Source: Rhodothermales bacterium
GTDB taxonomy: Bacteria; Bacteroidota; Rhodothermia; Rhodothermales; JABDKH01
DNA: 64,000 nt
Direction: 5' to 3'
Assembly (NCBI GenBank): GCA_013002345.1
Contig: JABDKH010000200.1
Coordinates: 664-64,663 of the forward strand
A model generated the notes under the pieces. It did not search any database. It was not told where the DNA came from and saw only the letters and a program-made list of their open reading frames with translations. The translations under genes were made by a program, and so were the position numbers. Numbering within the stretch: position 1 is the stretch's first letter; each line of letters starts with the position of its first letter. This document shows positions 45-25,672 of the stretch, piece after piece.

Positions 45-194
45 CTAGCGGATCAGATCGCGTACACGGTCAGCTTGCTCTTGCTGAGCCGTGTCGACAG
101 GAGGCTTATCTCTCCAGTCGGCTAACTCCGCGTACAGGTAGTAACCACCTGCAAGGAGTACTATGAGGATCAATATGCGGTACCGCATCCTCAT
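45..194 (-). CDS. possible small single-pass membrane protein (49 aa), hypothetical
   Basis: Manual minus-strand translation from ATG 194-192 to TAG 47-45 gives MRMRYRILILIVLLAGGYYLYAELADWRDKPPVDTAQQEQADRVRDLIR. It has one hydrophobic helix. It is below the ORF-track length cutoff and I recognise no family. Confidence 0.2.
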   Translation of the reverse strand: MRMRYRILILIVLLAGGYYLYAELADWRDKPPVDTAQQEQADRVRDLIR

Positions 195-364
195 TTCTCA
201 TCTTTTGAAAGCCACAGAATCTGCTATGGTTATCGGCCTACGGCGACACGATTTCAAACCGTGCCACGTCTTCGGCGCCAGATGTTGCAGGCAACTACGC
301 CTCTAGCTAGCTTCAACCCGCAAAACCATCCCTTCTCGGCCGCCACGACCCCGAAATCCCGTCC

Positions 365-1240
365 ATGATCCCCAAAGAACTCTTTCAGAAGATCCGGCAG
401 ATCGAAATCCGGACGAAAGGGCTGGTCAACAGCGTGTTCGGTGGAGAGTACCATTCGGCGTTCAAGGGCCAGGGAATGGAGTTTTCGGAGGTGCGACCAT
501 ACCAGATCGGGGATGATATTCGTTCAATCGACTGGAACGTCTCGGCGCGAACCGGCGAGACGTACATCAAGATCTTCGAAGAAGAACGCGAGCAGACCGT
601 CATGCTGGCTGTCGACATCTCCGGATCGAGCAATTTCGGTTCTCAGGGCAAGTTCAAGCGAGAGATCGCGGCCGAAATCTGTGCCATCGTGGCGTTCAGC
701 GCTATTCAGAACAGCGACAAGGTGGGCCTGCTCCTGTTTTCTGATGAGATTGAGTTGTTCGTCCCTCCGAAAAAGGGAAAGCGTCACGTGCTCCGCCTGA
801 TCCGGGATCTGTTCGCCCACGAGCAGAAGTCGACCGGCACGTCCATTTCCACGGCCCTCGAACACCTGATACATGTACTCCGTCGTCACTCGGTCATTCT
901 GCTGATGAGCGATTTCTTCGACACGGCCTTTGAGAAACCGTTGCGCGCCCTCGCTCAGCGACACGACCTCGTCGCCGTGCACCTGCAGGATGCCAGGGAA
1001 CAGGAACTGCCGTCCGTAGGACTCATAGAGCTGACCGATGCGGAGTCCGGGAGAACGACTGTGCTGGACGCCGGTAGCAAGCGAGTCCGACGTGCGTTTG
1101 CCGCGAAAGCAGCGCAACGTCAGGACGACCTCGATGCGCTGTTCCGTCGACTGCAGCTTGACCGCGTACTCATTCGGACCGATGAAAGCTACGTGGACCC
1201 ACTTATCGCGTTCTTCCGCCACCGAAACCGCGCCCGATGA
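365..1240 (+). CDS. DUF58 domain protein (MoxR/vWA-associated), first gene of the Bat-type operon
   Basis: 291-aa ORF. The N-terminal IRQIEIRTKGLV...GEYHSAFKGQGMEFSEVRPYQIGDDIRSIDWNVSART signature is typical of DUF58. The stop overlaps the next start (ATGA at 1237-1240). Confidence 0.88.
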   Translation: MIPKELFQKIRQIEIRTKGLVNSVFGGEYHSAFKGQGMEFSEVRPYQIGDDIRSIDWNVSARTGETYIKIFEEEREQTVMLAVDISGSSNFGSQGKFKREIAAEICAIVAFSAIQNSDKVGLLLFSDEIELFVPPKKGKRHVLRLIRDLFAHEQKSTGTSISTALEHLIHVLRRHSVILLMSDFFDTAFEKPLRALAQRHDLVAVHLQDAREQELPSVGLIELTDAESGRTTVLDAGSKRVRRAFAAKAAQRQDDLDALFRRLQLDRVLIRTDESYVDPLIAFFRHRNRAR

Positions 1241-2253
1241 AGCGTATCTGCTCCTTCTCTCTCTTCCTTTCTGCTGCTTTGCTAGGGACGGCGCTTCTTC
1301 ACCCGCTGGTCGGTCCAGCCAGCGCACAGACAGCACGCGCCTACTCGAAAACCGATAGCACCTCGGTTGGCGAGCGGTTTGATCTGACGGTCGTCGTAGA
1401 ACGTCCCGTCTGGGCCCGCACGGTCTTCACCCATCCGCCGCACGACAGCACCGGACAGGTGCTTCAGATTGCAGACATCCTGATTCTGAGGACACTACTC
1501 GATACGTCGCCGGCCGCATCGGAGTCCGGCATCGACAGCGTGGTCTACGAAGTAACGACCTTCGCTCTGGATACCGCCATCGTGGGACCCGTTCCGGTTG
1601 GAGTCGTGGCGACCGGCGATACGCTGGCGATCTCGACCGATCCGTTCTGGATTCCCGTTCGGTCCGTGGTTCCAGGTGACGCCGAGGACATTCTCGATTT
1701 GATGCCGATCGCCGAGTTCCCTCCGGCAGTCTGGCCGTGGCTGGTCTTTCTGGGTCTGTTGATCGTCGCGACCGGTGCCTTCCTCTGGTGGTACCGGCGC
1801 TCGCCGCAAATCGTCAGTCTTCTGCGAAGCGAACCTGAAATCATCATATCGCCACTTGAGGAAGCTACGGAAAGACTCGCCGCGCTTGAGGTCGCCGATC
1901 TTTCCACGGACGAGTCCGTGAAAGCGTTCTTCGTGGAATTATCCGAAACATTGCGGACGTATATATCCCGACGCCTGGAGGTGCCGGCGCTCGAAAGAAC
2001 GTCGCGTGAAATGCTCGACGACATTCGTGATCGGGCGAACCAGGATCTGGCCCCACCGGAAATGATAGAAGTGGCATCCCTGGTTCTGCAAACCAGCGAC
2101 CTTGCAAAGTTTGCAGAACTCTTTCCGGCTCAAGTGGTCTGCCGTCAGTCGATCGAGCGCGTGAGGAACGTCCTGGAGATGACAGAGAAATTCCTCACGC
2201 CGGAGGATGAAGTGATTATCGATGAATCCGCGCTGATACCGGAGAGCGAATGA
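1237..2253 (+). CDS. membrane protein, DUF4381-like C-terminal part with an extra N-terminal periplasmic domain
   Basis: 338-aa ORF. It has a signal peptide (MKRICSFSLFLSAALLGTALL...ASAQ), one central TM helix (WPWLVFLGLLIVATGAFLWWY) and a helical C-terminal domain. It occupies the position between DUF58 and batA that DUF4381 proteins usually take. Confidence 0.6.
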   Translation: MKRICSFSLFLSAALLGTALLHPLVGPASAQTARAYSKTDSTSVGERFDLTVVVERPVWARTVFTHPPHDSTGQVLQIADILILRTLLDTSPAASESGIDSVVYEVTTFALDTAIVGPVPVGVVATGDTLAISTDPFWIPVRSVVPGDAEDILDLMPIAEFPPAVWPWLVFLGLLIVATGAFLWWYRRSPQIVSLLRSEPEIIISPLEEATERLAALEVADLSTDESVKAFFVELSETLRTYISRRLEVPALERTSREMLDDIRDRANQDLAPPEMIEVASLVLQTSDLAKFAELFPAQVVCRQSIERVRNVLEMTEKFLTPEDEVIIDESALIPESE

Positions 2254-3005
2254 GCCTATTCTCACCACAACTGGTTTTCCACCTGGCGAAGGCCAGAAGA
2301 GTGGCGGTCCTGACTGGCGCGGGTATAAGCGCCGAGAGCGGCGTTGCGACATTTCGCGATGCTGGCGGCCTGTGGGAAAAACTGAAGCCGGAAGAGCTCG
2401 CGAACTTCGAAGCGTTCATGTCGAATCCTGAAATGGTGCAGATGTGGTACGCCCATCGACGGGAAGTTCTGAATGACGTCGTTCCAAACCCGGCCCACAT
2501 TGCCCTGGCCGGGTTCGAAGATCTGTTCGACGAGTTCACCGTGATTACGCAGAATGTGGACGACCTTCATCGCCGCGCGGGCAGCCGGAGCATCGTCGAA
2601 CTGCACGGGAATATTCTGCGCAACTACTGTGTTGCCTGTCGGCAACCGGCCGGCGATCACGAACTGGACCGTCCGGCGCCGGACGGAGCTTACCGCTGTG
2701 CGAAGTGTTCCGGTTTGATACGTCCGGACGTCGTCTGGTTCGGGGAGATGCTTCCGGAGGGAGCAATCGAGCGTGCCGACTCCGCAGCAAGAACCGCCGA
2801 GGTGTTCCTGAGCGTCGGAACCAGCGCCGTTGTTTATCCGGCGGCGTCGATACCCATAACCGCCCGTATCACTGGTGCCTATGTGGCCGAAATAAACGTC
2901 GAGAAGAGTGCCATCGGCGACGACCTGGATGAGGTTATCCTCGGCCCCGCCGGTGTGGTGCTTCCGCAATTGCTGGAAGCGGTAGTAGCAAAACGAGCAC
3001 AGTAG
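2250..3005 (+). CDS. cobB: NAD-dependent protein deacylase, Sir2 family
   Basis: 251-aa ORF with GAGISAESGVATFRDAGGLWE, TQNVDDLHRRAG, zinc Cys pairs CVAC...CAKC, and VVWFGE. The start overlaps the upstream stop (ATGA). Confidence 0.9.
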   Translation: MSLFSPQLVFHLAKARRVAVLTGAGISAESGVATFRDAGGLWEKLKPEELANFEAFMSNPEMVQMWYAHRREVLNDVVPNPAHIALAGFEDLFDEFTVITQNVDDLHRRAGSRSIVELHGNILRNYCVACRQPAGDHELDRPAPDGAYRCAKCSGLIRPDVVWFGEMLPEGAIERADSAARTAEVFLSVGTSAVVYPAASIPITARITGAYVAEINVEKSAIGDDLDEVILGPAGVVLPQLLEAVVAKRAQ

Positions 3006-3027
3006 CGACCAGAACGAATCAGCGCGG

Positions 3028-4023
3028 ATGGAACTCCCGATCACTTTTGCCAACCCTGCATTTTTGTGGGTGCTGCTGCTGCTACCGCTCTTGCCGGGCT
3101 GGGAGTGGTACCGGGCGCGCAATGAGCGAGGCTTTGCATTCAGCACGACAGAATCTGCGAAATCGGTACACCCTTCGTTCTGGACCCGCATCAGAGGTCT
3201 GCCGACACTCCTTCGAACGCTCGGAATTGCTCTTGCGATCGTGGCACTGGCTCGCCCGCAGGAGCGCAACGTAATCCGGGAGCAGTTTGCGGAAGGCGTC
3301 GATATCATGATGGTGCTCGACACGTCAACCTCCATGCGCGCTCAGGATTTTCAGCCCAACCGATTTCAAGCGGCAAGAGAGGTGGGGGCCGAGTTCATCC
3401 AGGGACGGCTTTCTGACAGGGTTGGCCTGATCGTCTTTGCGGCCAAGGCGTACACACAGGCACCCCTGACCCTCGACTACGACTTCCTTCTCCGGATGAT
3501 GGAAGAAGTCGAGGTGGGTGTGATCGAGGACGGTACGGCCATCGGGACGGCACTGGCTATGGCTGTGAACAGGCTCAAGGAAACAGAAGCCGTCAGCAAG
3601 GTTGTGATCCTCCTTACAGACGGACAGAACAACCGCGGCGAAATAGATCCTGTCACGGCGTCCGAAGTGGCCGAAGCACTTGGAGTGCGCGTCTACGCGA
3701 TCGGCGTCGGCGCGTATGGCGAGGCACCCTTTGTAATCGACCACCCGTTCGCGGGAAAGCAGCGCCGAATGATGCCCGTGGAGATCGACGAAGACATGTT
3801 GCGATCGGTAGCAGAAAAGACGGGGGGCGCGTATTTCCGCGCCACGGACAATGAAGCATTGCGACAGATCTACGAGCAGATCGGGGATCTGGAAAAAACG
3901 AAAATAGAAGAGCGCACCTACATGGATTACGAGGAGCGGTTTGCGCTCTTTCTTTGGCCGGCCTTCGGACTGATACTCCTCGAGATCCTCCTTTCAAACA
4001 CGAGACTGAGGCGACTGCCCTGA
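3028..4023 (+). CDS. batA: vWA domain membrane protein BatA
   Basis: 331 aa. N-terminal FANPAFLWVLLLLPLL TM motif, MIDAS DTSTSM, vWA fold, C-terminal TM helix. Confidence 0.88.
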   Translation: MELPITFANPAFLWVLLLLPLLPGWEWYRARNERGFAFSTTESAKSVHPSFWTRIRGLPTLLRTLGIALAIVALARPQERNVIREQFAEGVDIMMVLDTSTSMRAQDFQPNRFQAAREVGAEFIQGRLSDRVGLIVFAAKAYTQAPLTLDYDFLLRMMEEVEVGVIEDGTAIGTALAMAVNRLKETEAVSKVVILLTDGQNNRGEIDPVTASEVAEALGVRVYAIGVGAYGEAPFVIDHPFAGKQRRMMPVEIDEDMLRSVAEKTGGAYFRATDNEALRQIYEQIGDLEKTKIEERTYMDYEERFALFLWPAFGLILLEILLSNTRLRRLP

Positions 4024-4032
4024 CCGATTTCC

Positions 4033-5055
4033 ATGGACTGGCTTAACCCGACCTATCTCGCGGCCCTGTCGACAATTCCTGCCGTCATCCTTCTGATGGT
4101 TTGGGCGGCTATGTCTCGAAAGTCGGCATACAAGCGCCTCGGCGATCCTGTCCTGATTGAAAAATTGGCGTCTGCGATCAATCCACGCCGCCGACGCTGG
4201 AAAAGCGGACTCCTGATCTGTGCGGTCGCGCTGCTGGCGCTTGCGCTGGCGGGGCCCCGATTCGGTACCAAACTTCGAGAGGTGAAACGAGAGGGCGTCG
4301 ATATCATTTTCGCTCTCGATGTATCGCTGTCCATGCAGGCACGCGACATCGCCCCCAACCGACTTGACCGTTCCAAGAACGAGCTTAAGAAGTTGCTGGA
4401 CGAATTGAGAGGCGACCGCGTTGGGCTGGTACTGTTCGCCGGAGACGCCTTCATTCAGTGTCCGTTGACCACCGACTACGCTGCGGTGCGTCTGTTTCTG
4501 GACGTCGCAAACCCTCGGCTCATCCCGACGCCCGGCACCGATTTCGGAGGCGCTCTTCAAATGGCACTGCAGGCGTTTAAGAGTCAAGCGCGCGACGCCG
4601 ACACGGACCGCACGAAGGTACTCCTTTATGTATCAGACGGAGAGAATCACGTTGGATCGATTGCCGAGATCAGATTGAAGGCACAGGAGGAGGGCGTGAT
4701 CATTTTTTCTGCCGGGGCAGGAGAAACCGAGGGCGTCCCGATTCCATTGGCTCGGGACCGCGTAAATCCTGGTTACAAGAAGGACCGTGAAGGACGAGTC
4801 GTGATGACGGCGCTGGAGGAAGGCCCGCTGCGGGAACTCGCCGGCGATGGGGCCTACTTCCGTATCGCGAAAACATCGAGCTCACTGAACAAAATAATAT
4901 CTTCGCTCGAACGTTTGGAACGAACGGAATTCGCTCGTGAGGAGTTTGAGGAATACGACGAAAAATTCCAGTGGCCTCTGGCGTTGGCATGCCTGTTCCT
5001 TATTGGCGAGGTCATATTGCGCGACAAGTCCGTTAACTCTCTCCCGCAGGTATGA
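4033..5055 (+). CDS. batB: vWA domain membrane protein BatB
   Basis: 340 aa. N-terminal TM helix, MIDAS DVSLSM, C-terminal TM helix. It is a paralogue of the adjacent batA. Confidence 0.85.
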   Translation: MDWLNPTYLAALSTIPAVILLMVWAAMSRKSAYKRLGDPVLIEKLASAINPRRRRWKSGLLICAVALLALALAGPRFGTKLREVKREGVDIIFALDVSLSMQARDIAPNRLDRSKNELKKLLDELRGDRVGLVLFAGDAFIQCPLTTDYAAVRLFLDVANPRLIPTPGTDFGGALQMALQAFKSQARDADTDRTKVLLYVSDGENHVGSIAEIRLKAQEEGVIIFSAGAGETEGVPIPLARDRVNPGYKKDREGRVVMTALEEGPLRELAGDGAYFRIAKTSSSLNKIISSLERLERTEFAREEFEEYDEKFQWPLALACLFLIGEVILRDKSVNSLPQV

Positions 5056-5705
5056 AAGCGACCTGGCTACTACTGTTTGCACTGGCGACGTCGCCTCCGT
5101 CTGACGGGGACGGCCGTGAGGGGAACGACCTCTTCCGTGAAGGCAGATATCGGGAAGCCGCTGACGCCTACCTGGCAGCGCTGGATGCACTGGGTCCCGA
5201 CGCACCGGTGGACGTGCAGGCATCGCTTCTGAACAATCTTGGCGCCTCTCTCTTCCGGATGGAGGATTACGAGACTGCCCTGCAGGCGTTCGTCCGATCG
5301 CTTTCGGTCGCCGACACCCCGGCCGATCGAAGTCGGGCTGCCTACAACGCCGGCAATGCAGCGTATCGTCAGGAAGACCTGAACGCGGCACTGTCGTTCT
5401 TCAAACAGGCCCTGCTGGAGGACGGACTCAACGACAGCGCCAGATACAACTTCGAGTTCGTTCGCCGACGAGTGAAGGACGACCAGCCGCAACAGCAGGA
5501 AGACAGTGGTGGAAAGATTGAACCGTCCGAGTATGCGAAAGCTCTCAAACGGCAAGCGGAAGAACTGGTAGCGAAAAAGCAGTACCGGCTAGCCCACAGT
5601 CTGATGCTCGACGGCCTGCGGGTCGACGACTCCGTGCGTGCGTTTCAGGACTTCATTGGTCGCACCGGCAACATTGCGGACATAGATCAACCCCAGGATT
5701 CATGA
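5052..5705 (+). CDS. batC: TPR-repeat protein BatC
   Basis: 217 aa. It has a signal-like N-terminus and TPR repeats (GNDLFREGRYREAADAYLAAL, YNAGNAAYRQEDLNAALSFFKQAL). ATGA overlaps at both ends. Confidence 0.75.
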   Translation: MKATWLLLFALATSPPSDGDGREGNDLFREGRYREAADAYLAALDALGPDAPVDVQASLLNNLGASLFRMEDYETALQAFVRSLSVADTPADRSRAAYNAGNAAYRQEDLNAALSFFKQALLEDGLNDSARYNFEFVRRRVKDDQPQQQEDSGGKIEPSEYAKALKRQAEELVAKKQYRLAHSLMLDGLRVDDSVRAFQDFIGRTGNIADIDQPQDS

Positions 5706-6283
5706 TGCGTCTGCTCATCTCACTGGCGACAGTCACACTTGCCGTCGTGTCTGCAGTGTCGGGACAGTCCCCCGAGCGTGCGTTTCACGACGGGGCGCGC
5801 GTCTATGTTGATGGCAAACTGGCTGAGGCGGGCGAAATAGTGGCCGGCGGCCTGGCCGAGTTTCCGACCGATCCGAAGCTCCTCGCTCTGAACGCACTCA
5901 TTGAGCAGGAGAAGGAGCGCCAGCAACAGTCTGGAGAGGGCAACTCCGAGCAACAGGAGCAGGAACAGAACCAGGACCAGGAGTCCCAGCAAAATCAATC
6001 CGGCGATGAAGAGGATCCTTCGCAGGAAGAGTCTGGCGAAGGCGAACAAGAGCAAGAGGAAGAGCAGCAGGGAGAGGGTGAGCCGGAACCTCAGGAGCCG
6101 TCCGAAGAGCAGCAGTCGGAGGACCGCGAACAGCAGAGTGTAGAGGCGGGAGAAAACCAGGATCAATTGAGCCGCGCCCAGGCCATCCGCATCTTGCAGG
6201 CACTTCAGAACGAGGAAGAGGAACTGCTGCGCGAAGTGCAGAAGATCAAGGGCCGGCCTCGTCGAGTAGAAAAGGACTGGTAG
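5702..6283 (+). CDS. secreted hyper-acidic Gln/Glu-rich protein (BatC-tail-like), hypothetical
   Basis: 193 aa. It has a signal peptide (MMRLLISLATVTLAVVSAVSGQ), a Q/E/S/G low-complexity core of about 90 aa, and a conserved-looking C-terminus LSRAQAIRILQALQNEEEELLREVQKIKGRPRRVEKDW. It is translationally coupled on both sides. Confidence 0.65.
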   Translation: MMRLLISLATVTLAVVSAVSGQSPERAFHDGARVYVDGKLAEAGEIVAGGLAEFPTDPKLLALNALIEQEKERQQQSGEGNSEQQEQEQNQDQESQQNQSGDEEDPSQEESGEGEQEQEEEQQGEGEPEPQEPSEEQQSEDREQQSVEAGENQDQLSRAQAIRILQALQNEEEELLREVQKIKGRPRRVEKDW

Positions 6284-8187
6284 TGACGATATTTATGGTG
6301 GGGAGCGGTATTCAGAGAAACGCCAGGAGGATAGTGGCATCCTGCTGGCTGTCACTCGTCATCCAGGGCGCCTGTTTTCTAAACCTGGCGGCACAGGATC
6401 TGTCCGTCCGTGCATCTGTCAGTGAGACGACCATCGGCGTCGAAGAGACGCTGACCTACACGTTGGAGATTAGCGGCCAGTCGATTCCCGAGATACCCTC
6501 TCCCAGCGCACCCGAGACCGACGGACTGGTACTCACGAACCGATTTCCGTTCACATCTCAGAACATGTCCATCACCAACGGCCGCGTGCAGCAGAGCACT
6601 GGCTTCAGTTGGACGTACAAACCTGTTCGAGAAGGCACAGCCCGGTTTGAGGCGGTCGAAATCGAGATCGGCGGCAAGGCGTACCGGGCGGATGCAATTA
6701 ATGTTACGGTTGTTGCGCAGGCGCAGCGCCCGCCGCGCGCGCAGAGAAGGAATCCGTTCCTCATCGATCCGTTCGGTCGCCAGCAGCCACCTCCGCAGGA
6801 GGATGCTCAGATCTCGGATCGTGATATGTTCATCCGGGCGTCACCGAGTAAACGCCAGGCCTATCAAAACGAGCAGCTCACAATTGAATACGCCCTCTTT
6901 TTTCGCTCCGGTATTCAGTTGAGACAAAGCCGGCTTGCCGATTCGTGGGATGCCGAAGGCTTCTGGCGTGAAGAACTGGAGATAGAGTCGCGACCAATCC
7001 CCAAGACCGTCGTCGTAGATGGTCTCCGATATAACACGATCATCTTGAAACGGGTCGCGGTCTTCCCGACCAGAACGGGTGAACTCCGGATCGACCCGCT
7101 CCGGATCGAGAGCGAGGCGTCACTGCCCTTCGGATCCGGTGATCCATTCTTCTCGTTGAGAAACCGATACCAGCCCGTGCGACTTGCCTCGCCTGCTATC
7201 ACGATCGATGTGAAGCCATGGCCCGGCAATCCTCCCACCTCGTTTGCGGGAGCGGTCGGCAACTTCACGATCGATGCGAATGTAGACAGAACCCGGCTCG
7301 ACGTTGGCGAATCCGTCCAGGTGACGGCGCGAATCCGAGGATCCGGAAACATCGCGACGCTTGAGGCTCCGGCATTCCGGCCACCGGGCGTGTTCGAGGC
7401 GTACGATCCGGAGATCGCTACAAGCGTGAACCGCTCGGGAAGCAGCGTGCGTGGAACGAAGACGTTCAGTTATGTGCTGGTACCCCGGGCCAATGGCAAT
7501 TTCGAGATACCCGGGATCGACTTCAGCTTCCTTGAGCCATCGTCCGGCGAATACCGGACCATTCGCTCGAATCCGGCGCCGATTGTTGTGACGGGCACGG
7601 CCGGAGAGGCAGCGATCGTCGCGACGACCTCAACCGGACTGCCGATTGACGACATCGCTCCGCTGAAGCTCGACGACGTTGTCTGGACCGCCGCTGACCG
7701 GACGCCGATCCACCGGCAACCGTGGGCATACGTGTTCGGCGCTCTGCCCCTCCTCGGTTTGCTGGGCATCGCTCTGTGGCAACGGCATAGCACAAAGCTG
7801 GCGACCGACCTCAAGTTTGCCCGAAATCGACGGGCACATCCCCTGGCGCGCAAACACTTGAAACGAGCCGAGCAGCTTCTGGCAAGCGATGATCTTGCGG
7901 CATTCTATGAGGAGACCGAACGCGCCGTTCTGGGTTTCGTCGGAAACCGACTGAATATCGCGGAGATCGGTCTCACCCGAAATCAGCTGGTGATGCGACT
8001 CAGGGACGTCGGAATCCCGGACGACACGCTCTCGGCTCTAACCACCCTTCTCGAAGAATGTGACAGGGCGCGTTTTGCACCGTCGGCACCGACAGGAATG
8101 ACGCCGGAGGATGCGCACACGACAGCCGCATCTCTCATCGTCTCGATTGATCAATCAGTGGCAAACCACCGGGCAGTTTCCACGTGA
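6283..8187 (+). CDS. batD: BatD oxygen-tolerance family protein
   Basis: 634 aa. N-terminal signal, large periplasmic beta-rich region, late TM helix (WAYVFGALPLLGLLGIALW), cytoplasmic tail. Its position after batC is as expected. The start is GTG 6283 or ATG 6295. Confidence 0.82.
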   Translation: MTIFMVGSGIQRNARRIVASCWLSLVIQGACFLNLAAQDLSVRASVSETTIGVEETLTYTLEISGQSIPEIPSPSAPETDGLVLTNRFPFTSQNMSITNGRVQQSTGFSWTYKPVREGTARFEAVEIEIGGKAYRADAINVTVVAQAQRPPRAQRRNPFLIDPFGRQQPPPQEDAQISDRDMFIRASPSKRQAYQNEQLTIEYALFFRSGIQLRQSRLADSWDAEGFWREELEIESRPIPKTVVVDGLRYNTIILKRVAVFPTRTGELRIDPLRIESEASLPFGSGDPFFSLRNRYQPVRLASPAITIDVKPWPGNPPTSFAGAVGNFTIDANVDRTRLDVGESVQVTARIRGSGNIATLEAPAFRPPGVFEAYDPEIATSVNRSGSSVRGTKTFSYVLVPRANGNFEIPGIDFSFLEPSSGEYRTIRSNPAPIVVTGTAGEAAIVATTSTGLPIDDIAPLKLDDVVWTAADRTPIHRQPWAYVFGALPLLGLLGIALWQRHSTKLATDLKFARNRRAHPLARKHLKRAEQLLASDDLAAFYEETERAVLGFVGNRLNIAEIGLTRNQLVMRLRDVGIPDDTLSALTTLLEECDRARFAPSAPTGMTPEDAHTTAASLIVSIDQSVANHRAVST

Positions 8188-8963
8188 GAAATATCATCGC
8201 ATCTGTTCTTGTGGCACTGGCCTTTTCAACGCCGCTTGCGGCTCAGACCGACGAGGCCGCACGTCTGCTCGATGAGGGTAATCGCCTCTTCCGCGAGGGC
8301 AACTTCGAGCAGGCCAGGATCGCCTACGAGGAGGTGACAGACCTCGGCGTCGAGAGTGGAAACGTCTACTACAACCTGGGAAACGCGTACTTCCGACTTG
8401 ACCGCCTTGGGAAAGCGATGCTGAACTATCAGCGGGCATTTCGCTACTTCCCGAAGGATGCCGCATTGACTCACAATATGGACCTGGTTAGATCGCGTTC
8501 GCGAGATCAACTTTCGGTCCTGCCCAAACCGATCTGGGCCAAATGGTGGAACGGCTTCGTCGACACGGTCGGCCTGAGACGTCTCTTCTGGCTGGGTGTT
8601 GTCGGGTGGCTCGCAGGTCTGGCCCTGTTCGGGCGACGACTTCATCTTAGGGCGATCTCAACGGCAGCAAGAAGGCTGGCCATCGTTCTGGTCGTGGTTG
8701 GAGGGCTTGCCGGTGCCGGAGCCGTGGCCACTTCTGCGGCCCGAACGGATAACGTGTCGGCTGTCGTTACGGCCGATCGCGCTGACGTCCACGAGGAGCC
8801 GTCCAGCGACAGTCGGGTCGTAATTGTCGTTCACGAAGCGCTTGTGGTGGATGTTCTCAGGAACGACGGCGACCTGCTACAGGTACGTCTGCCGAACGGA
8901 ATCACCGGATTCGTCGAGCCAGGGACGATCGAGACCATCCAGGCTGTCCGGCGTACCGAGTAA
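8184..8963 (+). CDS. batE: BatE: TPR plus C-terminal SH3b-like domain protein
   Basis: 259 aa. Signal peptide, TPR (GNRLFREGNFEQARIAYEEV, YYNLGNAYFRLDRLGKAMLNYQRA), TM segments, SH3-like end (RVVIVVHEALVVDVLRNDGDLLQVRLPNGITGFV). The GTG start overlaps the batD stop (GTGA). Confidence 0.78.
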   Translation: MRNIIASVLVALAFSTPLAAQTDEAARLLDEGNRLFREGNFEQARIAYEEVTDLGVESGNVYYNLGNAYFRLDRLGKAMLNYQRAFRYFPKDAALTHNMDLVRSRSRDQLSVLPKPIWAKWWNGFVDTVGLRRLFWLGVVGWLAGLALFGRRLHLRAISTAARRLAIVLVVVGGLAGAGAVATSAARTDNVSAVVTADRADVHEEPSSDSRVVIVVHEALVVDVLRNDGDLLQVRLPNGITGFVEPGTIETIQAVRRTE

Positions 8964-9008: not shown

Positions 9009-9674
9009 ATGGAACCAGCATTTATCGGACATCATCGTCGGACGGGATGGATTGAGGTCGTGTGCGGATCCATGTTCAGCGGAAAGACGGAAGAGTTGAT
9101 CCGTCGGCTCAAGCGAGCCCGTTTTGCCCGTCAGAACGTGGAAATCTACAAGCCGGCTGTTGATTCGAGGTATAGCGTCTCCGAAGTCATCTCACACGAC
9201 GAGAATTCGATTCCGTCGGAGGTGGTCGACAGTGCGGGACAGATTCTGTTGATGGTGGGAAAGGCGGATGTCGTAGGTATCGACGAGGCGCAGTTCTTCG
9301 ACGAGGATCTGGTGGATGTGTGCCAGACACTGGCTCAGGATGGGCGGCGCGTTATTGTGGCAGGACTTGACCAGGATTACCTGAGGCGCCCATTTGAACC
9401 CATGCCGCAGGTGATGGCGATTGCGGAGTATGTGACGAAGCTCCACGCCGTTTGCGTGATATGCGGCTCACCGGCAAACCATTCGCAGCGAATTGTCGCT
9501 GGACGGTCCCGTGTTCTCCTCGGCGCCACCGACGTGTACGAGCCGCGCTGTCGGGACTGCTACGACCCGGAGCTTTCGGGAAGAATGAGTGATTCCGCCC
9601 TCGCGCCCGAGGCGGCTGCAGGGGACTCAGAGGTGCCGACGCCTTCGACGACGCCGGAGCCCGTAGAACGTTAG
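9009..9674 (+). CDS. tdk: thymidine kinase
   Basis: 221 aa. P-loop [21 protein letters not shown], zinc ribbon CVICG...CRDC, plus an acidic/Pro-rich tail. Confidence 0.93.
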
Positions 9675-9812: not shown

Positions 9813-11831
9813 ATGTCCGATACCAAGTACCTCGTTGCCGCTCGAAAGTACCGTCCACAGCGCTTCGATGAGGTCGTCGCTCAGGAGCATGTCTGCGACA
9901 CCGTCAAGAACGCGATCGCACAGAACCGACTGGGACACGCATACCTGTTCAGTGGACCGCGCGGTGTAGGCAAGACCACCGTCGCGCGCATTCTGGCGAA
10001 ATCGATCAATTGCACGGCACCGGCGGATGAGCGGGACGGCTCCGAGCCGTGTCTGAAGTGCGAATCCTGTCTGTCGTTCGCTGAGGGCCGCAACCTCAAT
10101 GTGATCGAGATCGATGCGGCCTCGAATAACAAAGTGGACGACGTCCGTGAGCTGCGTGACACTGTCAGAATCCCGCCGCAGGGGGGTCTGAAAAAAGTGT
10201 ACATCGTGGACGAGGTCCACATGCTCACATCTCAGGCCTTTAACGCACTGTTGAAGACGCTGGAGGAACCGCCGCCCTACGTCCTGTTTATTTTCGCGAC
10301 GACCGAACCCAACAAAGTTCTTCCCACAATCCTCTCTCGATGCCAGCGATTTGATTTCCGTCGAATAGCAGTGCCCGAAATCGTCGAGCGCCTGGAGCAG
10401 ATTTGCCAGGAGGAGTCGATCACCGCCGACGAGGCCTCACTGCTGCTCATTGCTCGTAAGGGAGACGGTGCCCTGCGCGACGCGCTTTCCGTATTCGATC
10501 AGGCGGTGGCACTGTGCGGCGAAAATGTCACATACGATGTGCTCGCCGAGGCGTTGGGCGTCGTGGACATTGAACTGTTCTTTGAACTGACAAACTATGT
10601 GCACGAAAAGAACCCGGCTGGAGTGCTGAACCTCGTGCAGGGAATCGTCGCTTCAGGATTCGACTTTCGAGAATTTCTGACCGGCCTTGCCGAGCACCTG
10701 CGCAACCTGTTCGTCGCTGTCACGATGTCCGACACGCGTCTCATCGAAACGGCTGCTGCGACACGGGAACGCTACGCGGTTGAGGCAGGCAACTTCAATC
10801 GTTCAATGCTGCTTCGACTTCTCACCATTGCGTCAGACACGGACGGGGCGATTCGTAACAGCACCCGACCGCGACTGCAGCTTGAACTGGGTCTGTTGAA
10901 AATGACGGCCATGGCGGACAGCATTGACCTGAGGCAGGTCATCCAGAAGATCGACCAGATTCAGGGGACACCGGCAGCTCCGGTCACCGGACAAGAGCCA
11001 GCGACGCCCACCGTCCACAAGTCGACGACACGACCGACGACGAAAGCTCCAGCGAGAAAGTCCGCCGCGAAGGCGGCTTCCGTATCCAGCCCACTGCCGG
11101 ACACCGGTAAGGACGGTACCCCCGAGTCCCCGGCACCGGCTGAGCCCCCAGCGGAAAAGCCAGCGGCCAGGACCGCGAAGACACCAGCCCCCGAGCAAAA
11201 CACGACTCCTCTAATTCAGCCGGCAGTGGCACCGGTAGAGGAACAGGAAACGGCACTGCCGGCCAGGCCGCTCAAGCCCGCGCCCGTGGAACCGACCGAC
11301 GCGCCGCCCGCCGAATCGTCGAAGCCAAAGACATCCAGCGCGCCAGGATTCTTCGACCCGCCCGCTTTGTCGCGCCATACTTCGGCACCGAAGAAAAACG
11401 GCGGCACAATCGAAGGTTCGGCAGCTCGCTCGACAACGCCGCTCGCCCCAATTGCCATGGGCGATGCACAGAAAGTTTCTGAGTGGCTCCCCTTCGTGAT
11501 GGCGGTGAAGTCAGACCGGATCCACGTGGGATCACTCCTGCAACACGCGGCACCCCGAGACATGTCGGACGGTCACATCGAAATTGACGTCCCGGACGAC
11601 TTTCACAAAAGGCTCCTGGAGAACCAGCAAGACTTCCTTCTGAAGCATGCCAGAGGCATCATCGCTGACAGCGTTCAGTCGCTCCGCTTCAGCGTCCAGG
11701 CCAGCGTTAAGCCTCCATCGGGAGAAACCGCCAGTGATTTCGACCCGTACGAGTACATGCAGCAGAAGAGAAAAGACAACCCGGTAATACGAGCCATCTT
11801 CGATGAGTTCGGCGGCGAACTGGTCTGGTAG
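9813..11831 (+). CDS. dnaX: DNA polymerase III subunit gamma/tau
   Basis: 672 aa. Walker A GPRGVGKTT, zinc module CLKCESC, Walker B VYIVDEVHML, SRCQRFDF, Pro/Ala/Lys-rich linker, tau C-terminal domain. It is followed by ybaB-recR. Confidence 0.95.
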   Translation: MSDTKYLVAARKYRPQRFDEVVAQEHVCDTVKNAIAQNRLGHAYLFSGPRGVGKTTVARILAKSINCTAPADERDGSEPCLKCESCLSFAEGRNLNVIEIDAASNNKVDDVRELRDTVRIPPQGGLKKVYIVDEVHMLTSQAFNALLKTLEEPPPYVLFIFATTEPNKVLPTILSRCQRFDFRRIAVPEIVERLEQICQEESITADEASLLLIARKGDGALRDALSVFDQAVALCGENVTYDVLAEALGVVDIELFFELTNYVHEKNPAGVLNLVQGIVASGFDFREFLTGLAEHLRNLFVAVTMSDTRLIETAAATRERYAVEAGNFNRSMLLRLLTIASDTDGAIRNSTRPRLQLELGLLKMTAMADSIDLRQVIQKIDQIQGTPAAPVTGQEPATPTVHKSTTRPTTKAPARKSAAKAASVSSPLPDTGKDGTPESPAPAEPPAEKPAARTAKTPAPEQNTTPLIQPAVAPVEEQETALPARPLKPAPVEPTDAPPAESSKPKTSSAPGFFDPPALSRHTSAPKKNGGTIEGSAARSTTPLAPIAMGDAQKVSEWLPFVMAVKSDRIHVGSLLQHAAPRDMSDGHIEIDVPDDFHKRLLENQQDFLLKHARGIIADSVQSLRFSVQASVKPPSGETASDFDPYEYMQQKRKDNPVIRAIFDEFGGELVW

Positions 11832-16838: not shown

Positions 16839-19800
16839 GTGCAATCCGATCCGTCGACAATTCCTCAGCGAGAGGGCTCCCACCGCGTGTTGTGGCGCCG
16901 TGCGGCAGCCTTGTGCTATGCGGGTCTCGTGTTGATCTCTGCGGCGTGGATCTACGCCGGATCATCTGCACAACCTGCCGACCTTGCTCGATCCAGCTGG
17001 TACTTCGCGGCAGCCGACACGGACTCTGTCGCGGTGAACGACGATGACCTACTTCGTCGGGCGCGCCGCTTTCGCGCGCCGGCCGACACGGACTCGGTTG
17101 CGATGGATGACGATGACGACCTTCTCCGCGCCCGCCGCTCACTCGCACGCGTTGACAGCCTGACGTCCGACACGACCTTTGCTGACTCCACTGCGGCAGA
17201 CACAGTTGGTGTCGCCGCGGATACGCTGAAGTCGCTGCCCTTCATTCCCCTGTTCCGCAGGGACCGCCGATCGGCAAGTCTCTTCCCCCGAAGCCGACGG
17301 CCGCTGTCTTCCAAGCTGAGTCCGACGTGGAAGCACAGCATTCGACTGGACTCGACGACGGGTGGCTACATCGCTACCGAAACCGTTTCGAACCGAGATG
17401 TGCGAGACCCGGTGCTCCTGGATCGTGCCTCCTACCGAGTGTCGAGAGGTCGAAAGGGCATGAGGCAGAACTGGTCGGCCCTCGTCGAGCAGCGCGAGCG
17501 CCAGCGACGGCAGCGGCGCCGCGGCGGACTTGGTTTCAACATTGTGGTGCCCGGCGGTCGTCAAAGTGCCTTCACCACAATATTCGGAAAGCCGGAGGTC
17601 GACCTGCGCGTAAACGGGCAGGCAGATATCCGCGCCGGCTTCGACTATCGAAAGAGCGACCAGCAAGTCTCGGTAACAGGCAAAGCTGCACAGCTGGACC
17701 CGGACTTCAAGCAGGATCTTCGGCTCGGCATCACCGGCTCCATCGGAGACAAGATGCGTGTCGACGTCAACTACGACACGAACAATCAGTTTGACTTCCA
17801 GAACCAGCTCAAGCTGCAATACACCGGCTACGAAGACGAGATCATCCAGAGTATCGAAGCCGGAAACGTCTTCCTGCAGACACCTTCGACGCTTATCAGA
17901 GGCGGTCAGAGTCTATTCGGTATCAAGAGTCAGTTCCAGCTTGGCGGGCTGCACCTCACAACCGTGATGAGCCAGCAGGAGGGCCAGTCGAACTCCCTCA
18001 GTATCAACGGTGGTTCGGAAGCAAGCAAGTTCGATCTCAAGCCCACCGACTATGACGAAGGCAAGCACTTCTACCTTGCCTACTACTTTCGTAACCGGTG
18101 GCAGGACGCACTCGCGGATCCGCCCAACATTCGCGTCGCTCATGGCTTTACCAGGATCAATGAGGTGGAAGTCTGGAAGTTCGAGCTGACCTCACCCGAG
18201 GATGAGAATGTGCGCGACATCGTGGCGATGGTTGACCTCGGCGAATCGGATGAGGTGCTGACGCTGGCCAATCGTTTTACTCGCGCCTCTGCCAGTGACC
18301 TCCCGCGGAACCAGGGCGACCGGTACCTCGATACGGAAATCGAGACGCTGCGCGATACGGAAACTCTACCGAATTCCTTCCTGCGAGACGTGAAAGGGCT
18401 GTCCGACAACGACTTCCAGACCGGTCGGTTTCGCAAGTTGGAGTCCGGACGTGACTACGTGATTGATGAGGTGCTCGGATACATTTCGCTGAATCAGCGG
18501 CTTCAGGACAACGAAGCGCTCTCCATCGCCTACCGGTACATTGCTGGCGGCCAGGTATTCCAGGTCGGGGATTTCTCTTCGGACGGATTTGGCGGAGACC
18601 AGCGGCTGGTCCAGAAACTTCTGCGACCCAATCAGCCCCGGCAGCCGAATCTGACAGCCGACCCTCCCTTTAATCCAGCTGCGTGGTATCTCGAACTCCG
18701 CAATATCTATCCAATAGGCGGGCGGGGAGTAAATCCCAGCGATTTCCAACTGGACGTTGAGTTCCAACCTGCCGGCAAGACGGCCCAGACGAAACTGCCC
18801 GGAGTGGGAGAACCGCAGACCCTCATTCAGCTCCTCGGTCTTGACCGGCTGAACGAAGACGGCGCCCCCCGACCCGACAACCTCTTCGACTATCTGCCGG
18901 GATACACCATCGAGTCGAGCAAAGGCTTACTGATTTTCTCATACCTGGAGCCGTTTGGCGGACGCATTGATTCGCTGATCAGCGAGTCCAATGCGACGCC
19001 GGCAGAGAAGTCGGAGCTCCGCCGCGTTTACGTTTTTTCCCGCCTCTACACCGAAAAGAAACAGAACGCGCGTCTGGATACTCAGCTTGACGTCTATCGG
19101 ATAAGAGGTTCGTTCAAGGGTGCCGCGCAGGACTTCTACGACCTTCGAGCATATGCGGGTCTGGTTCCCGGTTCCGTTCGCGTGAGTTCGGCCGGCAGTG
19201 AGCTGCGCGAGAACGTGGACTTCGTTGTTGATTATCAGAGTGGGACGGTGACCATAACGAATCCCACTTTCTTGACGAAGGATGTCGAGATCTCGTACGA
19301 ACAGAACTCGTTCTTCAACCTTCAGAAAAAGACCCTCCTTGGTGCGCGTGCAGACTACGATCTCGACGAGCGTTTGTCGCTGGGTGCTACGGTCATGCGG
19401 TTGAGCCAGAAGTCCCCGATCGACAAGTTCCGGATCGGTGAGGAGCCGATCTCCAACACGATCTGGGGTGTTGATGGAGCGATCAACCTCGAACCGCGCT
19501 GGCTCACCCGTTTTGTTGACGCCATTCCATTCATCAACACGAAAGCCAAGAGCTCCATTTCTATCACGGGTGAATTTGCTCAGCTCCGGCCGGGCCACAC
19601 GGAGACGGCCGCGTTCGACCGAACGCGGAAGGAGCTCGAGCGCGAGGGTCAGGACTTCAAGCCCGACGAACTCGCCGGAATATCCTACGTCGATGACTTT
19701 GAGGGTTTCGAAAACACGTACTCCCTGGCTCAACCGGGAACGTGGCAGATGGCCGCACCTCCGGATTCCATCGGCGCTATCGACCGCGTCGGCGTACAGA

Positions 19801-22800
19801 CCGGACCTGTCGGCGACTCACTCCGAACGACATGGCGCGGTAACTTCGCCTGGTATCGTGTGAACCAGAACATCATCTCAGAACTCTCAGGAAGCACAAC
19901 CGTCCGCCCGGATGCCGTGCGCGTCGTGCTGATAGAAGAAGTCTTCCCGAATCGTGACATCAGCGGCGAGATCGACCGGACACAGCCTACCCTTGATCTG
20001 TATTTCAACCCGGGAGAGCGAGGGCCCTATAACTACACGACGGAGCTGCGCAACTTCCTGAATAACCCGAAGGATGCCTGGGGCGGTATGATCCAGCGAC
20101 TCCCGGACGGCTTCAATGACTTCAGCCTGAAGAACATCGAGTTCGTGGAGTTCATCATGCAGGCCTATCCTGAGAATCTATCTAACGATGCAGGGCCTGA
20201 TGCGAAACTGTTTGTCGACCTGGGATTCATCTCCGAAGACCTCCTCCCAAATGAGCGTCTTAATGACGAAGACGGATTGTCGACGGCCACAATTGGAGAG
20301 ACGTCAGTGTCGTCGTGGGGTCGTGTGCCCGTCGTTGCACCGGACCGCGTGCTGAAGGTCGACACGGACAGTCGCCGGACGGAAGATGTCGGCATCGATG
20401 GTCTTGCATCGTACGGCGGCGATTACCCGGCGTTCGCTACAGAGCAGGGACACTTCATTGACTTTCTGAATGCCCTTGATCGTACGGAGACCGACCCCCG
20501 CTATCTGGCCGAGATTGCACGAGCGGAAGTCGATCCGTCGGGAGACGATTATCACTTCTACGGAAACAATCGATATTTCGAAGACACTCGATTCTATCCG
20601 GGTGGCGCGACGTTCCAGCAGCGCATGACACGGTACTTCGCCGGTCATGAGCTCAACTCATTTGAAGGGCAGACCGAACTGGCGGAGAACACCTCCGTAC
20701 GCAGGGGCAACTCCCGCTTCCCGGACAGTGAGGATATCAATCTCAACTCGACCGTCGACACGGAGAACAGCTACTTCCAGTACAGCCTTCCCTTGTCGAA
20801 AGCGGCCCTCGATTCGCTTGCCCGACCCGATCGTGTCGATGACTTCGTCGTCGGGCAGATCAAGGATGGAGATACCGGGCGCGAGACCGGCTGGTATCAG
20901 ATTCGGATACCTATTCGGTCGTTTTCCCGTCGAGTCGGGTCGATCCAGGACTTCAGCAAGATAGAATCGATTCGCATCTGGACAACCGGACATGAAGTGC
21001 CGGCCACGCTGCGATTCGCCACGCTTGAACTCGTTGGAAGTCAGTGGCAAAAATCGGAGCAGATCAAGCTTGAGCGCGAACCGCCCGGCGAGGAAGACGC
21101 CCGTGACACAAGATTGAGCATCTCCAGCGTCAACAACGAAGAGAATGCAGATGTTTACCTGTCGCCACTCGGGACCGTAGTCAGTTTGACCAGACTCGCG
21201 AGTGGGGGAACACAGAACGCGCGGGAGCAGGCGATGGTGCTGCGCAGCGAGAATCTCTATCCGGGTAGACAGCGGGGCATATTCAAGACATACAGCCAGG
21301 GTCTCGATTTCCTCAAGTACTCCAATGTTCGAATGTTCGCCCACCTTCACGGGGACCTTGGTGATGGTCGAAAGCTGGCGGATCTCCCAATCGAAGAGGG
21401 GCGATCAAAGGCCTCCCTGTTTATCCGGCTTGGCGCCAACGAGACAAACGACTACTACGAGTACGAGCAGCCTCTGACGCCGAGCAGCGAGCTCTCACGA
21501 AACTCAGGTGTACTCTGGCAGACGGGACAAGATTTTAACGGTCAGACGGTCGACCTGAATTCCATCAACATAGAACTCGCGGCGCTGAACCAGCTCAAGG
21601 TGACACGTGACCAACGCGGAGTTCGAACCGACTCTGTGTTCTGGGCAAGCGCCGACGATTTCGCCCCGCCCGGAACGAGGATCGGTATCATTGGCACACC
21701 TTCGCTCAGTCGTATCAATACGATTGCAATCGGCATTCGCAATCCGGCGGATACATCGAGCGTCAGTACCAGCGACATACTTTCCGATGTCACGGTGTGG
21801 ATCAACGAGCTGCGGGTAGCGGGATACGATGAGAAGGCCGGCTGGTCTGCACTCGCCAATGCATCGATCCAGCTGGCGGACCTGGGTCGAGTGCGAGCCA
21901 ACATCCAGACCCAGACAGATGGATTCGGATCGTTGTCCAGCTCACTCGGCGAGCGAGATCAACAGGCGATAACCAACTGGAGCGTGACCACGGAATTGAA
22001 TGCTGACAAACCGATCCCTGAGCGGTTTGGATGGAAGATTCCGCTCTCGTATCAGATTCAGTCAAACACGACCACTCCGCGCTTCGCACCGAGTCGCGGA
22101 GACGTGCGCCTCAAGGAAATCCTCGCTCAGATTGACGATCGAGAGCAGGACGGAGAGATCTCAGCCGAAGAGGCGCAGTTCGAGCGGGACGAGGCGAAGC
22201 TGGCGGCGGAGACCCACAGTGAATCGCAGTCCTTCACGGGCCGGATTGGCAAGAGCGGCTCGAAGTCGAAGGTCCTGAAGTACACGCTTGATGGCATTTC
22301 GGCGTCGTATTCGTTTACGGATTCGAAGGCGCGCAATCCGTCGCTCGAACTGAATGACTCCTGGCGATGGTCGAACACGCTTGGTTACCGACTCAATATT
22401 CGAAAACCCCGAACCGTCCGGCCGTTCTGGTTTCTGGATGATATTCCGGTGCTCGCAGCGCTCGGAAGCATTCGATTTAACTATCTGCCTCAGTCTCTCA
22501 GTGCATCGGCCACTACGTCCCGCAGTCTCACTGAAACGAGGGAGCGCCCGCGGTTGCTGGGCACCGACACGCGCAACGCGACGGAGGTGCTGGTCGACAA
22601 TCCACTCCGCGGCAAGCACTCTTTCAGCCACTCGCGCAATTTCAGTCTTCAGTACAATCCCTTCCAGTTCCTCAACCTGAGTTTTGACACAAACACCGGT
22701 CTAAGCCTCAATGCCGCCGGCGTCGACACGCTGTCGGTGGTCGCGGACACCCAGCTCGACACCGTCTATACCAACGCTGATGGCAAGTTCACTCTGGAGG

Positions 22801-24862: not shown

Positions 24863-25672
24863 ATGGAACCGGAAGAAAACAAGCCGAACGAAGTCGTAGT
24901 CTGCCATCTCGGTCGCGCCGAGTATGAGCCCACCTGGGATCTCCAGCGACGGCTTCAATCCTCGCTTGCCGCGGCAAAACGGATCGACCCGAACCACCGG
25001 GAGCCACACGTCATACTCACGGTAGAGCATCCGCCGGTCTATACGCTCGGCAAGAGCGGAGATGTCAGTAATCTCCTGATCGGCTCAGAGGAGTTATCCG
25101 CGGAAGGTGCGACGTTCATTCAGATCGATCGCGGCGGTGACATCACGTTTCATGGGCCCGGGCAACTGGTGGTCTATCCGATACTTGATCTGGGACACTT
25201 CTTCCTGGACATTCATCGATATCTCCGGACGCTTGAGGATGTCGTGATCGCGACGTGCCGGGATTTCGGCATCGGCGCAGGCCGGAGCACCGGCCGAACG
25301 GGCGTGTGGGTCGGACCGGACGCTCGAGGTGCCGAACGAAAGATCTGTGCCATGGGTATCAAGTGTTCGCGATGGGTGACCAGTCATGGACTGGCACTGA
25401 ACGTGAGAACAGATTTGAAGTACTTCCAGAACATCGTGCCGTGTGGAATCGCGGACCGCGGCGTTACGTCCCTGTCTGCCGAGATGGGCAGGAAGGTGGA
25501 AATCTCCGACGTGGCTCCAGTTCTCATCGGCCACATGGCACGGCTTTTTGAGATGTCCGTTCAGCAGTTCTCCGGTGAACCCGCGCATGAATACCTTCGC
25601 GAGCGTCTGGGCGAGCAGGAAGAACTGGCAGGTCCGATCAGTGAAGAGCGCCCGAAAACATCTGCGGTGTAG
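24863..25672 (+). CDS. lipB: lipoyl(octanoyl) transferase
   Basis: 269 aa. RGGDITFHGPGQLVVYPILDL, KICAMGIKCSRWVTSHGLALNV and VPCGI motifs, plus an acidic C-terminal extension. Confidence 0.93.
   Translation: MEPEENKPNEVVVCHLGRAEYEPTWDLQRRLQSSLAAAKRIDPNHREPHVILTVEHPPVYTLGKSGDVSNLLIGSEELSAEGATFIQIDRGGDITFHGPGQLVVYPILDLGHFFLDIHRYLRTLEDVVIATCRDFGIGAGRSTGRTGVWVGPDARGAERKICAMGIKCSRWVTSHGLALNVRTDLKYFQNIVPCGIADRGVTSLSAEMGRKVEISDVAPVLIGHMARLFEMSVQQFSGEPAHEYLRERLGEQEELAGPISEERPKTSAV

Follow-up and report, generated by a model that had tools for sequence, protein, structure and literature searches.

Why does a sirtuin gene sit in the middle of a Bat operon? The question is raised by a 64,000-nucleotide (nt) stretch of contig JABDKH010000200.1 from a Rhodothermales bacterium (assembly GCA_013002345.1, positions 664 to 64,663), hereafter the window, where an open reading frame (ORF) for a Sir2-family deacylase at 2250-3005 lies between a DUF4381-like gene and batA. 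Comparison with related loci leads us to conclude that the Rhodothermales Bat operon with a sirtuin is a real, lineage-specific variant, passed down through most of the order and lost in sister lineages, in which a functional link between the sirtuin and the Bat proteins is possible but unproven. At roughly even odds (a probability of about 0.5), we regard the sirtuin as a co-expressed passenger paralogue in the operon.

The reality of the arrangement is best seen from its recurrence among relatives. A scan with the sirtuin as query, using one genome per GTDB species, returned 24 loci. All ten loci with at least 60% identity belong to Rhodothermales, one of them being a Salinibacteraceae metagenome-assembled genome (MAG). 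At each of the ten, DUF58, the DUF4381-like gene and SIR2 stand in this order, and BatA comes next in 7/7 of the contigs that continue. Twelve further places with sirtuin homologues (L025/L026, L107-L111/L112 and L113-L117) all showed the same slot. Among them are Rhodocaloribacter litoris (CP076718.1), Rhodothermaceae bacterium RA (CP020382.1) and Rhodothermus marinus, each with a complete genome. Another 80 loci, without taxonomy of their own, came from scanning metagenome contigs with BatA as the centre. In total, the sirtuin orthologue was found in 38 loci, and in all 38 it adjoins the DUF4381-like gene and/or batA; another 12 ingroup loci have the same operon type without it. A neighbourhood survey of this kind had been proposed in an earlier reading of the window made from the sequence only, and its outcome is two-sided: the slot is occupied at 38/38 orthologue loci, but no sirtuin was met in the 32 more distant (outgroup) Bat operons, and no Bat genes were found near the 14 sirtuin loci of other phyla (identity of 53% or less). 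Since the placement recurs in every locus that carries the orthologue, it is more than chance. One might still invoke chance adjacency or an assembly or annotation artefact, in favour of which there are only spurious ORFs of high-GC DNA, such as the minus-strand ORF 2262-3335. This ORF overlaps the sirtuin gene and is itself a high-GC artefact, the strong SIR2 domain match belonging to the plus-strand product. Purifying selection on the sirtuin gene (see below) speaks against the artefact as well, and the presence of the arrangement in the complete genomes of independent isolates, in dozens of MAGs and in metagenome contigs refutes such an explanation, the probability of which we consider negligible.

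Within the window the sirtuin gene is tightly packed between its neighbours. Its ATG (2250-2252) overlaps the TGA (2251-2253) of the DUF4381-like gene in the context gcgaATGAgc, with a GGAG 5 nt upstream of the ATG; from the end of the sirtuin ORF (3005) to the start of batA (3028) there is a gap of 22 nt. According to the ORF list of the window, nine plus-strand ORFs are packed over 365-8963, with 4-nt overlaps at junctions 1237/1240, 2250/2253, 5052/5055, 5702/5705 and 8184/8187, a 1-nt overlap at 6283 and gaps of 22 and 9 nt at the remaining junctions. The ORF coordinates thus bear out what the sequence-only reading had said of the start and stop overlaps, of the gap before batA and of the nine-gene run. 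The features concerned are the following.

45 to 194, minus strand: small divergent ORF with a single hydrophobic helix, 49 amino acids (aa) long or 47 aa if started at the second ATG, the upstream operon boundary
195 to 364, plus strand: non-coding leader (~170 nt), presumed promoter region, no plus-strand ORF
365 to 1240, plus strand: DUF58 (vWA-like) protein, first operon gene (Pfam DUF58, 2e-82; no transmembrane segment)
1237 to 2253, plus strand: DUF4381-like membrane protein (weak DUF4381 match, 1.3e-05)
2250 to 3005, plus strand: class III sirtuin, 251 aa (Pfam SIR2, 4.9e-52)
3028 to 4023, plus strand: BatA (BatA_N plus vWA), three hydrophobic segments (Pfam, NCBIfam, hydropathy)
4033 to 5055, plus strand: BatB-like vWA membrane protein (Pfam, NCBIfam)
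5052 to 5705, plus strand: BatC-like TPR protein (Pfam, NCBIfam)
5702 to 6283, plus strand: 193-aa protein, signal peptide followed by a low-complexity body that is extremely acidic and rich in E/Q (no family match)
6283 to 8187, plus strand: BatD (Pfam BatD, 1.4e-34)
8184 to 8963, plus strand: BatE-like TPR protein, weak SH3 match (Pfam), closing the run
9009 to 9674, plus strand: thymidine kinase, unrelated to the operon, serving as a synteny control (Pfam TK, 2.5e-52)

What kind of enzyme does the embedded gene encode? The match to SIR2 (PF02146) is full length, with residues 23-197 covering profile positions 1-180 of 180 at E 4.9e-52, and the motifs, described as intact in the sequence-only reading, are so: GAGISAESGVATFR at residues 23-36, TQNVDDLH at 100-107, CVAC at 127-130 and CAKC at 150-153. 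These provide the NAD+-binding stretches G23-G31 and T100-H107 and the zinc ligands C127/C130/C150/C153, the catalytic histidine being H119. In an alignment of the operon-embedded copies, GAGxSxxSG, TFR, Y67/R70, QNxD, H119 and the four cysteines are invariant in 30/30. The pair Y67/R70 is the class III YxxR pair, which recognizes acidic acyl-lysines and aligns with WYAWR of Sir2-Af1, so that the substrate range may be suited to acidic acyl groups such as succinyl. Sir2-Af1 of Archaeoglobus fulgidus (1ICI) is also the closest solved structure (E 2.5e-58), other near solved relatives being E. coli CobB (1S5P) and human SIRT5, with E values of up to about 1e-47. The protein scores 276.5 bits against the NCBIfam subfamily NF001753 (NAD-dependent protein deacylase; cutoff 243) and 258.9 bits against the CobB equivalog NF040867 (cutoff 320); since it passes the former and fails the latter, membership is assigned at the subfamily level only. 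Hydropathy revealed no signal peptide or internal transmembrane segment, while Pfam and structure comparison revealed no extra domain beside SIR2. As judged from a dN/dS of 0.094 against the 94%-identical relative L001, the gene is shown to be under purifying selection. Overall, the window sirtuin is predicted to be an ordinary, functional, cytoplasmic class III deacylase.

Such a set of features bears directly on another explanation, namely that the protein is a SIR2 NADase effector of defence type, belonging to a conflict system built on vWA proteins. As a matter of general knowledge, both SIR2 domains and MoxR-vWA modules occur in defence and conflict systems. The two terms also co-occur in PMC8195603. 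Nevertheless, the full deacylase motif set, the Cys4 zinc module, the YxxR pair and the nearest relatives (Sir2-Af1, CobB and SIRT5) all point elsewhere, as does the housekeeping chromosome context of the window, which includes thymidine kinase, DnaX, YbaB, RecR and SprA; we therefore find a defence role hardly credible. Defence-type SIR2 proteins (Thoeris ThsA, DSR, SIR2-HerA) were also looked for with PADLOC in the sirtuin plus five neighbours, and no match was obtained at E<=1e-3.

A second sirtuin was found neither in the window nor in any fetched locus. A SIR2_2 (PF13289) gene does precede the operon of Rhodocaloribacter litoris by ~1.7 kb, in the opposite orientation (L107 1731-2795, minus strand), and this gene is unrelated to the class III sirtuin.

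How the sirtuin came to its place can be read from the trees. In neighbour-joining (distance) trees of concatenated DUF58+BatA(+BatB) with 200 bootstraps, the Rhodothermales-type operons form one clade (200/200). The main group without a sirtuin branches from among the sirtuin bearers (197/200), with the window plus L001 as its sister (185/200), and L044 represents a second lineage without the gene. The operon sirtuins are monophyletic in the sirtuin tree. Such a topology suggests, as the simplest history, one insertion in the common ancestor of Rhodothermales followed by vertical inheritance and at least two later losses. Where the slot was emptied, the rest of the operon is unchanged: without the sirtuin, the DUF4381-like gene runs 2-16 nt into batA, and a relaxed tblastn search for a sirtuin remnant at these junctions returned only noise (best E 0.03 over 52 aa). 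The sequence-only reading had held that absence of the sirtuin from this position in close relatives would tell against its idea of a link with the Bat complex. Such absence is indeed seen in the sister clade and in L044, with the operon being kept in both. It is also important to note that unrelated genes on the flanks keep their places: thymidine kinase follows BatE in 9/14 assessable ingroup loci, and a GATase_5 or YceI gene is located upstream of the operon in 15/24 loci. As these flanking genes are largely syntenic too, the argument from conservation of the sirtuin slot is weakened.

The immediate surroundings of the slot are variable in spacing. From the DUF4381-like stop to the sirtuin start, the distance ranges from a 4-nt overlap to ~190 nt (L004 unresolved), the upper end being found in L109, where there is also an extra 152-aa ORF (6349-6807). 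The 4-nt ATGA overlap is shared by the window, L001, L002, L110, L111 and R. marinus. Between sirtuin and batA the gap spans -4 to about 220 nt, and identity of the DUF4381-like protein drops to 30% across the loci that keep the slot. The stretch from DUF58 to batA varies more widely still, with peptidyl-prolyl isomerase (PPIase)/SurA-like or TPR genes in outgroups (L084 7836-9881, L099 2293-3672, L089 9196-9963). As other lineages insert such genes between DUF58 and the DUF4381-type gene, this stretch tolerates insertions. Much longer DUF4381-like genes, of 527-548 aa, were found in L004 (8186-9832) and L107 (5342-6925).

In the scenario that we favour, a class III sirtuin gene would have entered a Bat operon without MoxR a single time, at the junction of the DUF4381-like gene with batA. 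Most likely, it would be transcribed from the promoter of the DUF58-led operon and translated in coupling with the DUF4381-like gene. Co-expression with the operon, which the sequence-only reading had put forward, is a reasonable supposition, as many relatives conserve both the position and the tight coupling; from this, we infer co-transcription and translational coupling in vivo. The leader 195-364 may act as the promoter region. A short TAGCTT-containing stretch lies ~60 nt before the DUF58 ATG in the window, L001, L110 and L111, and the 47-aa gene is called in the same place as the window ORF 45-194 in L110, L111 and L112. Consensus scans gave no sigma-70-like match in the leader 195-364 and no promoter or terminator on the plus strand at 2250 or 3005-3028. 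The scan counts did not exceed those from shuffled sequences, the sigma-70-type consensus being uninformative where promoters are not of this type. The Bacteroidetes-type -7 motif TAnnTTTG has 0 matches on both strands of the window (1-64000), against 8.7 +/- 3.0 per 64 kb expected from dinucleotide-preserving shuffles; TAnnTTT is present 13 times in the 64 kb, and the next base is never G. With zero matches, this motif is unusable for placing the operon promoter.

Does the operon need its sirtuin? If the favoured scenario holds, the enzyme would be one of several paralogues carrying out general deacylation of cytoplasmic proteins, and its link with Bat would amount to shared expression plus common descent, with no required mechanistic partnership. 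The 12 ingroup loci that keep the operon without a sirtuin show that it is dispensable. According to a review (PMC8603916), the mean number of PF02146 sirtuins per genome exceeds three in Rhodothermia, whereas other Bacteroidetes classes have one. With several sirtuins per genome, as reported there, loss of a single copy is plausibly buffered. We also looked for a lysine in DUF58 or in the DUF4381-like protein that would track the presence of the sirtuin and found none; this is a weak test, as the groups compared are confounded with phylogeny.

Before weighing the evidence on the other side, we would like to comment on where the operon has broken. In R. marinus CP172416.1 (L113), DUF58, the DUF4381-like gene and SIR2 (with the ATGA overlap) are followed by a 128-aa gene on the opposite strand and then by BatA-BatB-BatC-BatD. 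In R. marinus SG0.5JP17-172, as in assemblies from hot springs, BatA-D is located at a great distance from the trio and the 128-aa gene; exact protein matches (e.g., BatC = Rmar_0440) assign the BatA-D locus L052 to R. marinus. The upstream flank of the locus also differs between R. marinus strains (L113 vs L025/L114, L052). Such a pattern points to a recent rearrangement in R. marinus with a breakpoint just before batA. Another locus, L117, is truncated after batA and keeps the sirtuin with DUF58 and the DUF4381-like gene. Breaks are thus seen at SIR2|batA (R. marinus) and batA|batB (L117), and none within DUF58/DUF4381-like/SIR2. Since the breaks spare this trio, any operon partner of the sirtuin should be sought in this cytoplasm-facing module. 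Directly upstream of DUF58 in CP172416.1, on the same strand, there is an ADP-ribosylglycohydrolase gene (PF03747; L113 4765-5793, plus strand), and the presence of this NAD-related gene beside the sirtuin operon is probably a coincidence.

The topology of the proteins leads to the same module. The vWA domain of the BatA-like protein BB0173 faces the periplasm (PMC5700661), and the window BatA has the same three hydrophobic segments. With the BatA vWA in the periplasm, a cytoplasmic sirtuin would have access to no more than DUF58 and, in the case of the DUF4381-like protein, its cytoplasmic tail. The DUF58 protein is soluble and predicted to be cytoplasmic, with 60-97% identity to the copies of relatives. 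The DUF4381-like protein, with a match of 26 bits just below the Pfam cutoff of 27.2, has by hydropathy a signal peptide, a periplasmic domain, a transmembrane segment at 165-183 and a cytoplasmic tail of ~155 aa; its outgroup equivalents match a BatD-like N-terminus plus DUF4381, more clearly than the window copy does.

Keeping this in mind, it is tempting to suppose that the sirtuin is a dedicated accessory regulator, that is, a specialised paralogue whose amount is fixed relative to the cytoplasmic components. It might deacetylate or desuccinylate DUF58 and/or the DUF4381-like tail, so that assembly or activity of the Bat complex would follow the NAD+/acyl-CoA state. We hold this to be a possibility worth keeping, if a rather tentative one. 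Several observations favour it and weigh against a mere passenger. A clade of order rank conserves the slot, and none of the 38 loci, down to 48% identity, has the orthologue anywhere else. The ATGA overlap with the DUF4381-like gene is kept in several lineages. The break in R. marinus did not part the sirtuin gene from those of DUF58 and the DUF4381-like protein, and the three are likewise together in L117. A cytoplasmic location is predicted for the sirtuin, for DUF58 and for the DUF4381-like tail. Moreover, given the several sirtuins per genome reported in PMC8603916, this copy need not be the general CobB and would have room to specialise. Finally, a passenger role is a null hypothesis, which is beyond proof by sequence data. 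On the other hand, the association has one evolutionary origin with no recurrence in outgroups, there were two clean losses with the operon otherwise unchanged, the conserved lysines of DUF58 and of the DUF4381-like protein are kept just as well in loci without the sirtuin, unrelated flanking genes are syntenic too, and the protein is a plain class III enzyme with no extra domain. In a more specific version, the paralogue would have become a regulatory subunit in the cytoplasm, dedicated to a DUF58/DUF4381/Bat envelope machine that lacks MoxR. It would deacylate DUF58 or the DUF4381-like tail, so that assembly of the periplasmic vWA complex would follow NAD+/acyl-CoA status; we rate this version as slightly less probable again. 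The 'NAD+/redox sensing' that the sequence-only reading suggested for the sirtuin is pure conjecture. Overall, a co-expressed passenger remains the interpretation we prefer.

A further peculiarity of the locus concerns its beginning. The sequence-only reading had assumed the usual start of a Bat operon with a MoxR ATPase, and this did not hold for the window. Here DUF58 is the first operon gene, with no MoxR (AAA_3) directly upstream: there is no plus-strand ORF in 1-364, and the 64 kb contain neither a MoxR-type Walker A nor a tblastn match to a MoxR query taken from the outgroup locus L075 (Pfam AAA_3, 2.1e-67). In the outgroup, where the order is MoxR-DUF58-(BatD-like/DUF4381)-BatA, MoxR directly precedes DUF58 in 26/26 loci having upstream sequence. 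No ingroup locus, the sirtuin-less ones included, has MoxR within 8-10 kb upstream. Both changes fall on the same stem branch, and one could imagine that MoxR left the operon and that control of the vWA proteins passed to the sirtuin. However, as the sirtuin-less ingroup loci are also without MoxR and keep the operon with neither gene in cis, the sirtuin is unlikely to replace it. In addition, the activity of a deacylase has nothing in common with that of an AAA+ remodeller, and MoxR may be encoded elsewhere in these genomes. We thus consider such a takeover very improbable.

Regarding the remaining genes, BatA, BatB, a TPR BatC, BatD and a TPR/SH3 BatE stand in one same-strand cluster with DUF58 and a DUF4381-type gene upstream of batA, as is proper for a Bat operon. 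The scores of the Bat proteins are below the Leptospira-specific 'exception' cutoffs of NCBIfam, as expected for another phylum. In L001, batA has a 1-nt insertion (about 11560-11570, corresponding to about 3816 of the window), GCAGAGAAAG vs GCAGA-AAAG, which puts the last ~60 codons out of frame; the window version corresponds to the conserved C-terminus of other relatives, and a sequencing error or a pseudogene in that MAG is the likely cause. The acidic 193-aa gene between the BatC-like gene and BatD occurs in L001, L109, L110 and L111, and not in all relatives. Farther downstream, a 2667-aa SprA-family protein (type IX secretion translocon) is encoded at 16839-24842 on the plus strand, followed by a lipoyl ligase-type gene at 24863-25672.

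What is new, then, is a combination typical of Rhodothermales: a sirtuin inside the operon together with no MoxR, the enzyme class and the kind of operon being known. The operon and sirtuin genes are already annotated in public genomes. Published descriptions of Bat name MoxR and HtpG as neighbours and no sirtuin (PMC3557215, PMC5700661), and our literature search found no description of a sirtuin within a DUF58/Bat operon, in agreement with the sequence-only reading. Widely distributed among Bacteroidota and spirochaetes, Bat operons are of unresolved function, and their role in aerotolerance is disputed, even for Leptospira (PMC3557215). A conserved, coupled sirtuin provides a concrete hypothesis for cultured organisms, with R. 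marinus strains having intact vs split loci and sister lineages without the sirtuin serving as a natural experiment. If the sirtuin were a dedicated regulatory subunit, it would offer the first biochemical handle on the long-obscure Bat system. If the link is co-expression alone, the gene of an unrelated enzyme has been fixed in mid-operon for the lifetime of an order. The absence of MoxR, in turn, calls into question a MoxR-DUF58-vWA coupling that was assumed to be obligatory.

How does the window operon compare with known systems? With the BatI operon of Bacteroides fragilis, the Leptospira bat cluster and Borrelia BB0170-BB0176, it shares gene order and tight packing, as well as DUF58, a DUF4381-type protein, BatA, BatB, a BatC-like TPR protein, BatD and a BatE-like TPR/SH3 protein. 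Unlike them, it has the sirtuin between the DUF4381-like gene and batA, no MoxR and the extra acidic 193-aa gene. The enzyme itself resembles Sir2-Af1, CobB and SIRT5 in its full-length alignment, NAD+ motifs, catalytic histidine, Cys4 zinc module and YxxR pair. It differs from them in being operon-embedded and in falling below the CobB equivalog cutoff, with assignment to the subfamily only. As a precedent for a bacterial sirtuin dedicated to proteins of its own operon, we take SirTM, the class M sirtuin accompanied by a macrodomain protein, GcvH-L and LplA2. SirTM is of another sirtuin class, has ADP-ribosyltransferase activity and turns up together with its partners in several phyla, whereas the window sirtuin is a plain class III deacylase whose linkage with the Bat operon is of one origin.

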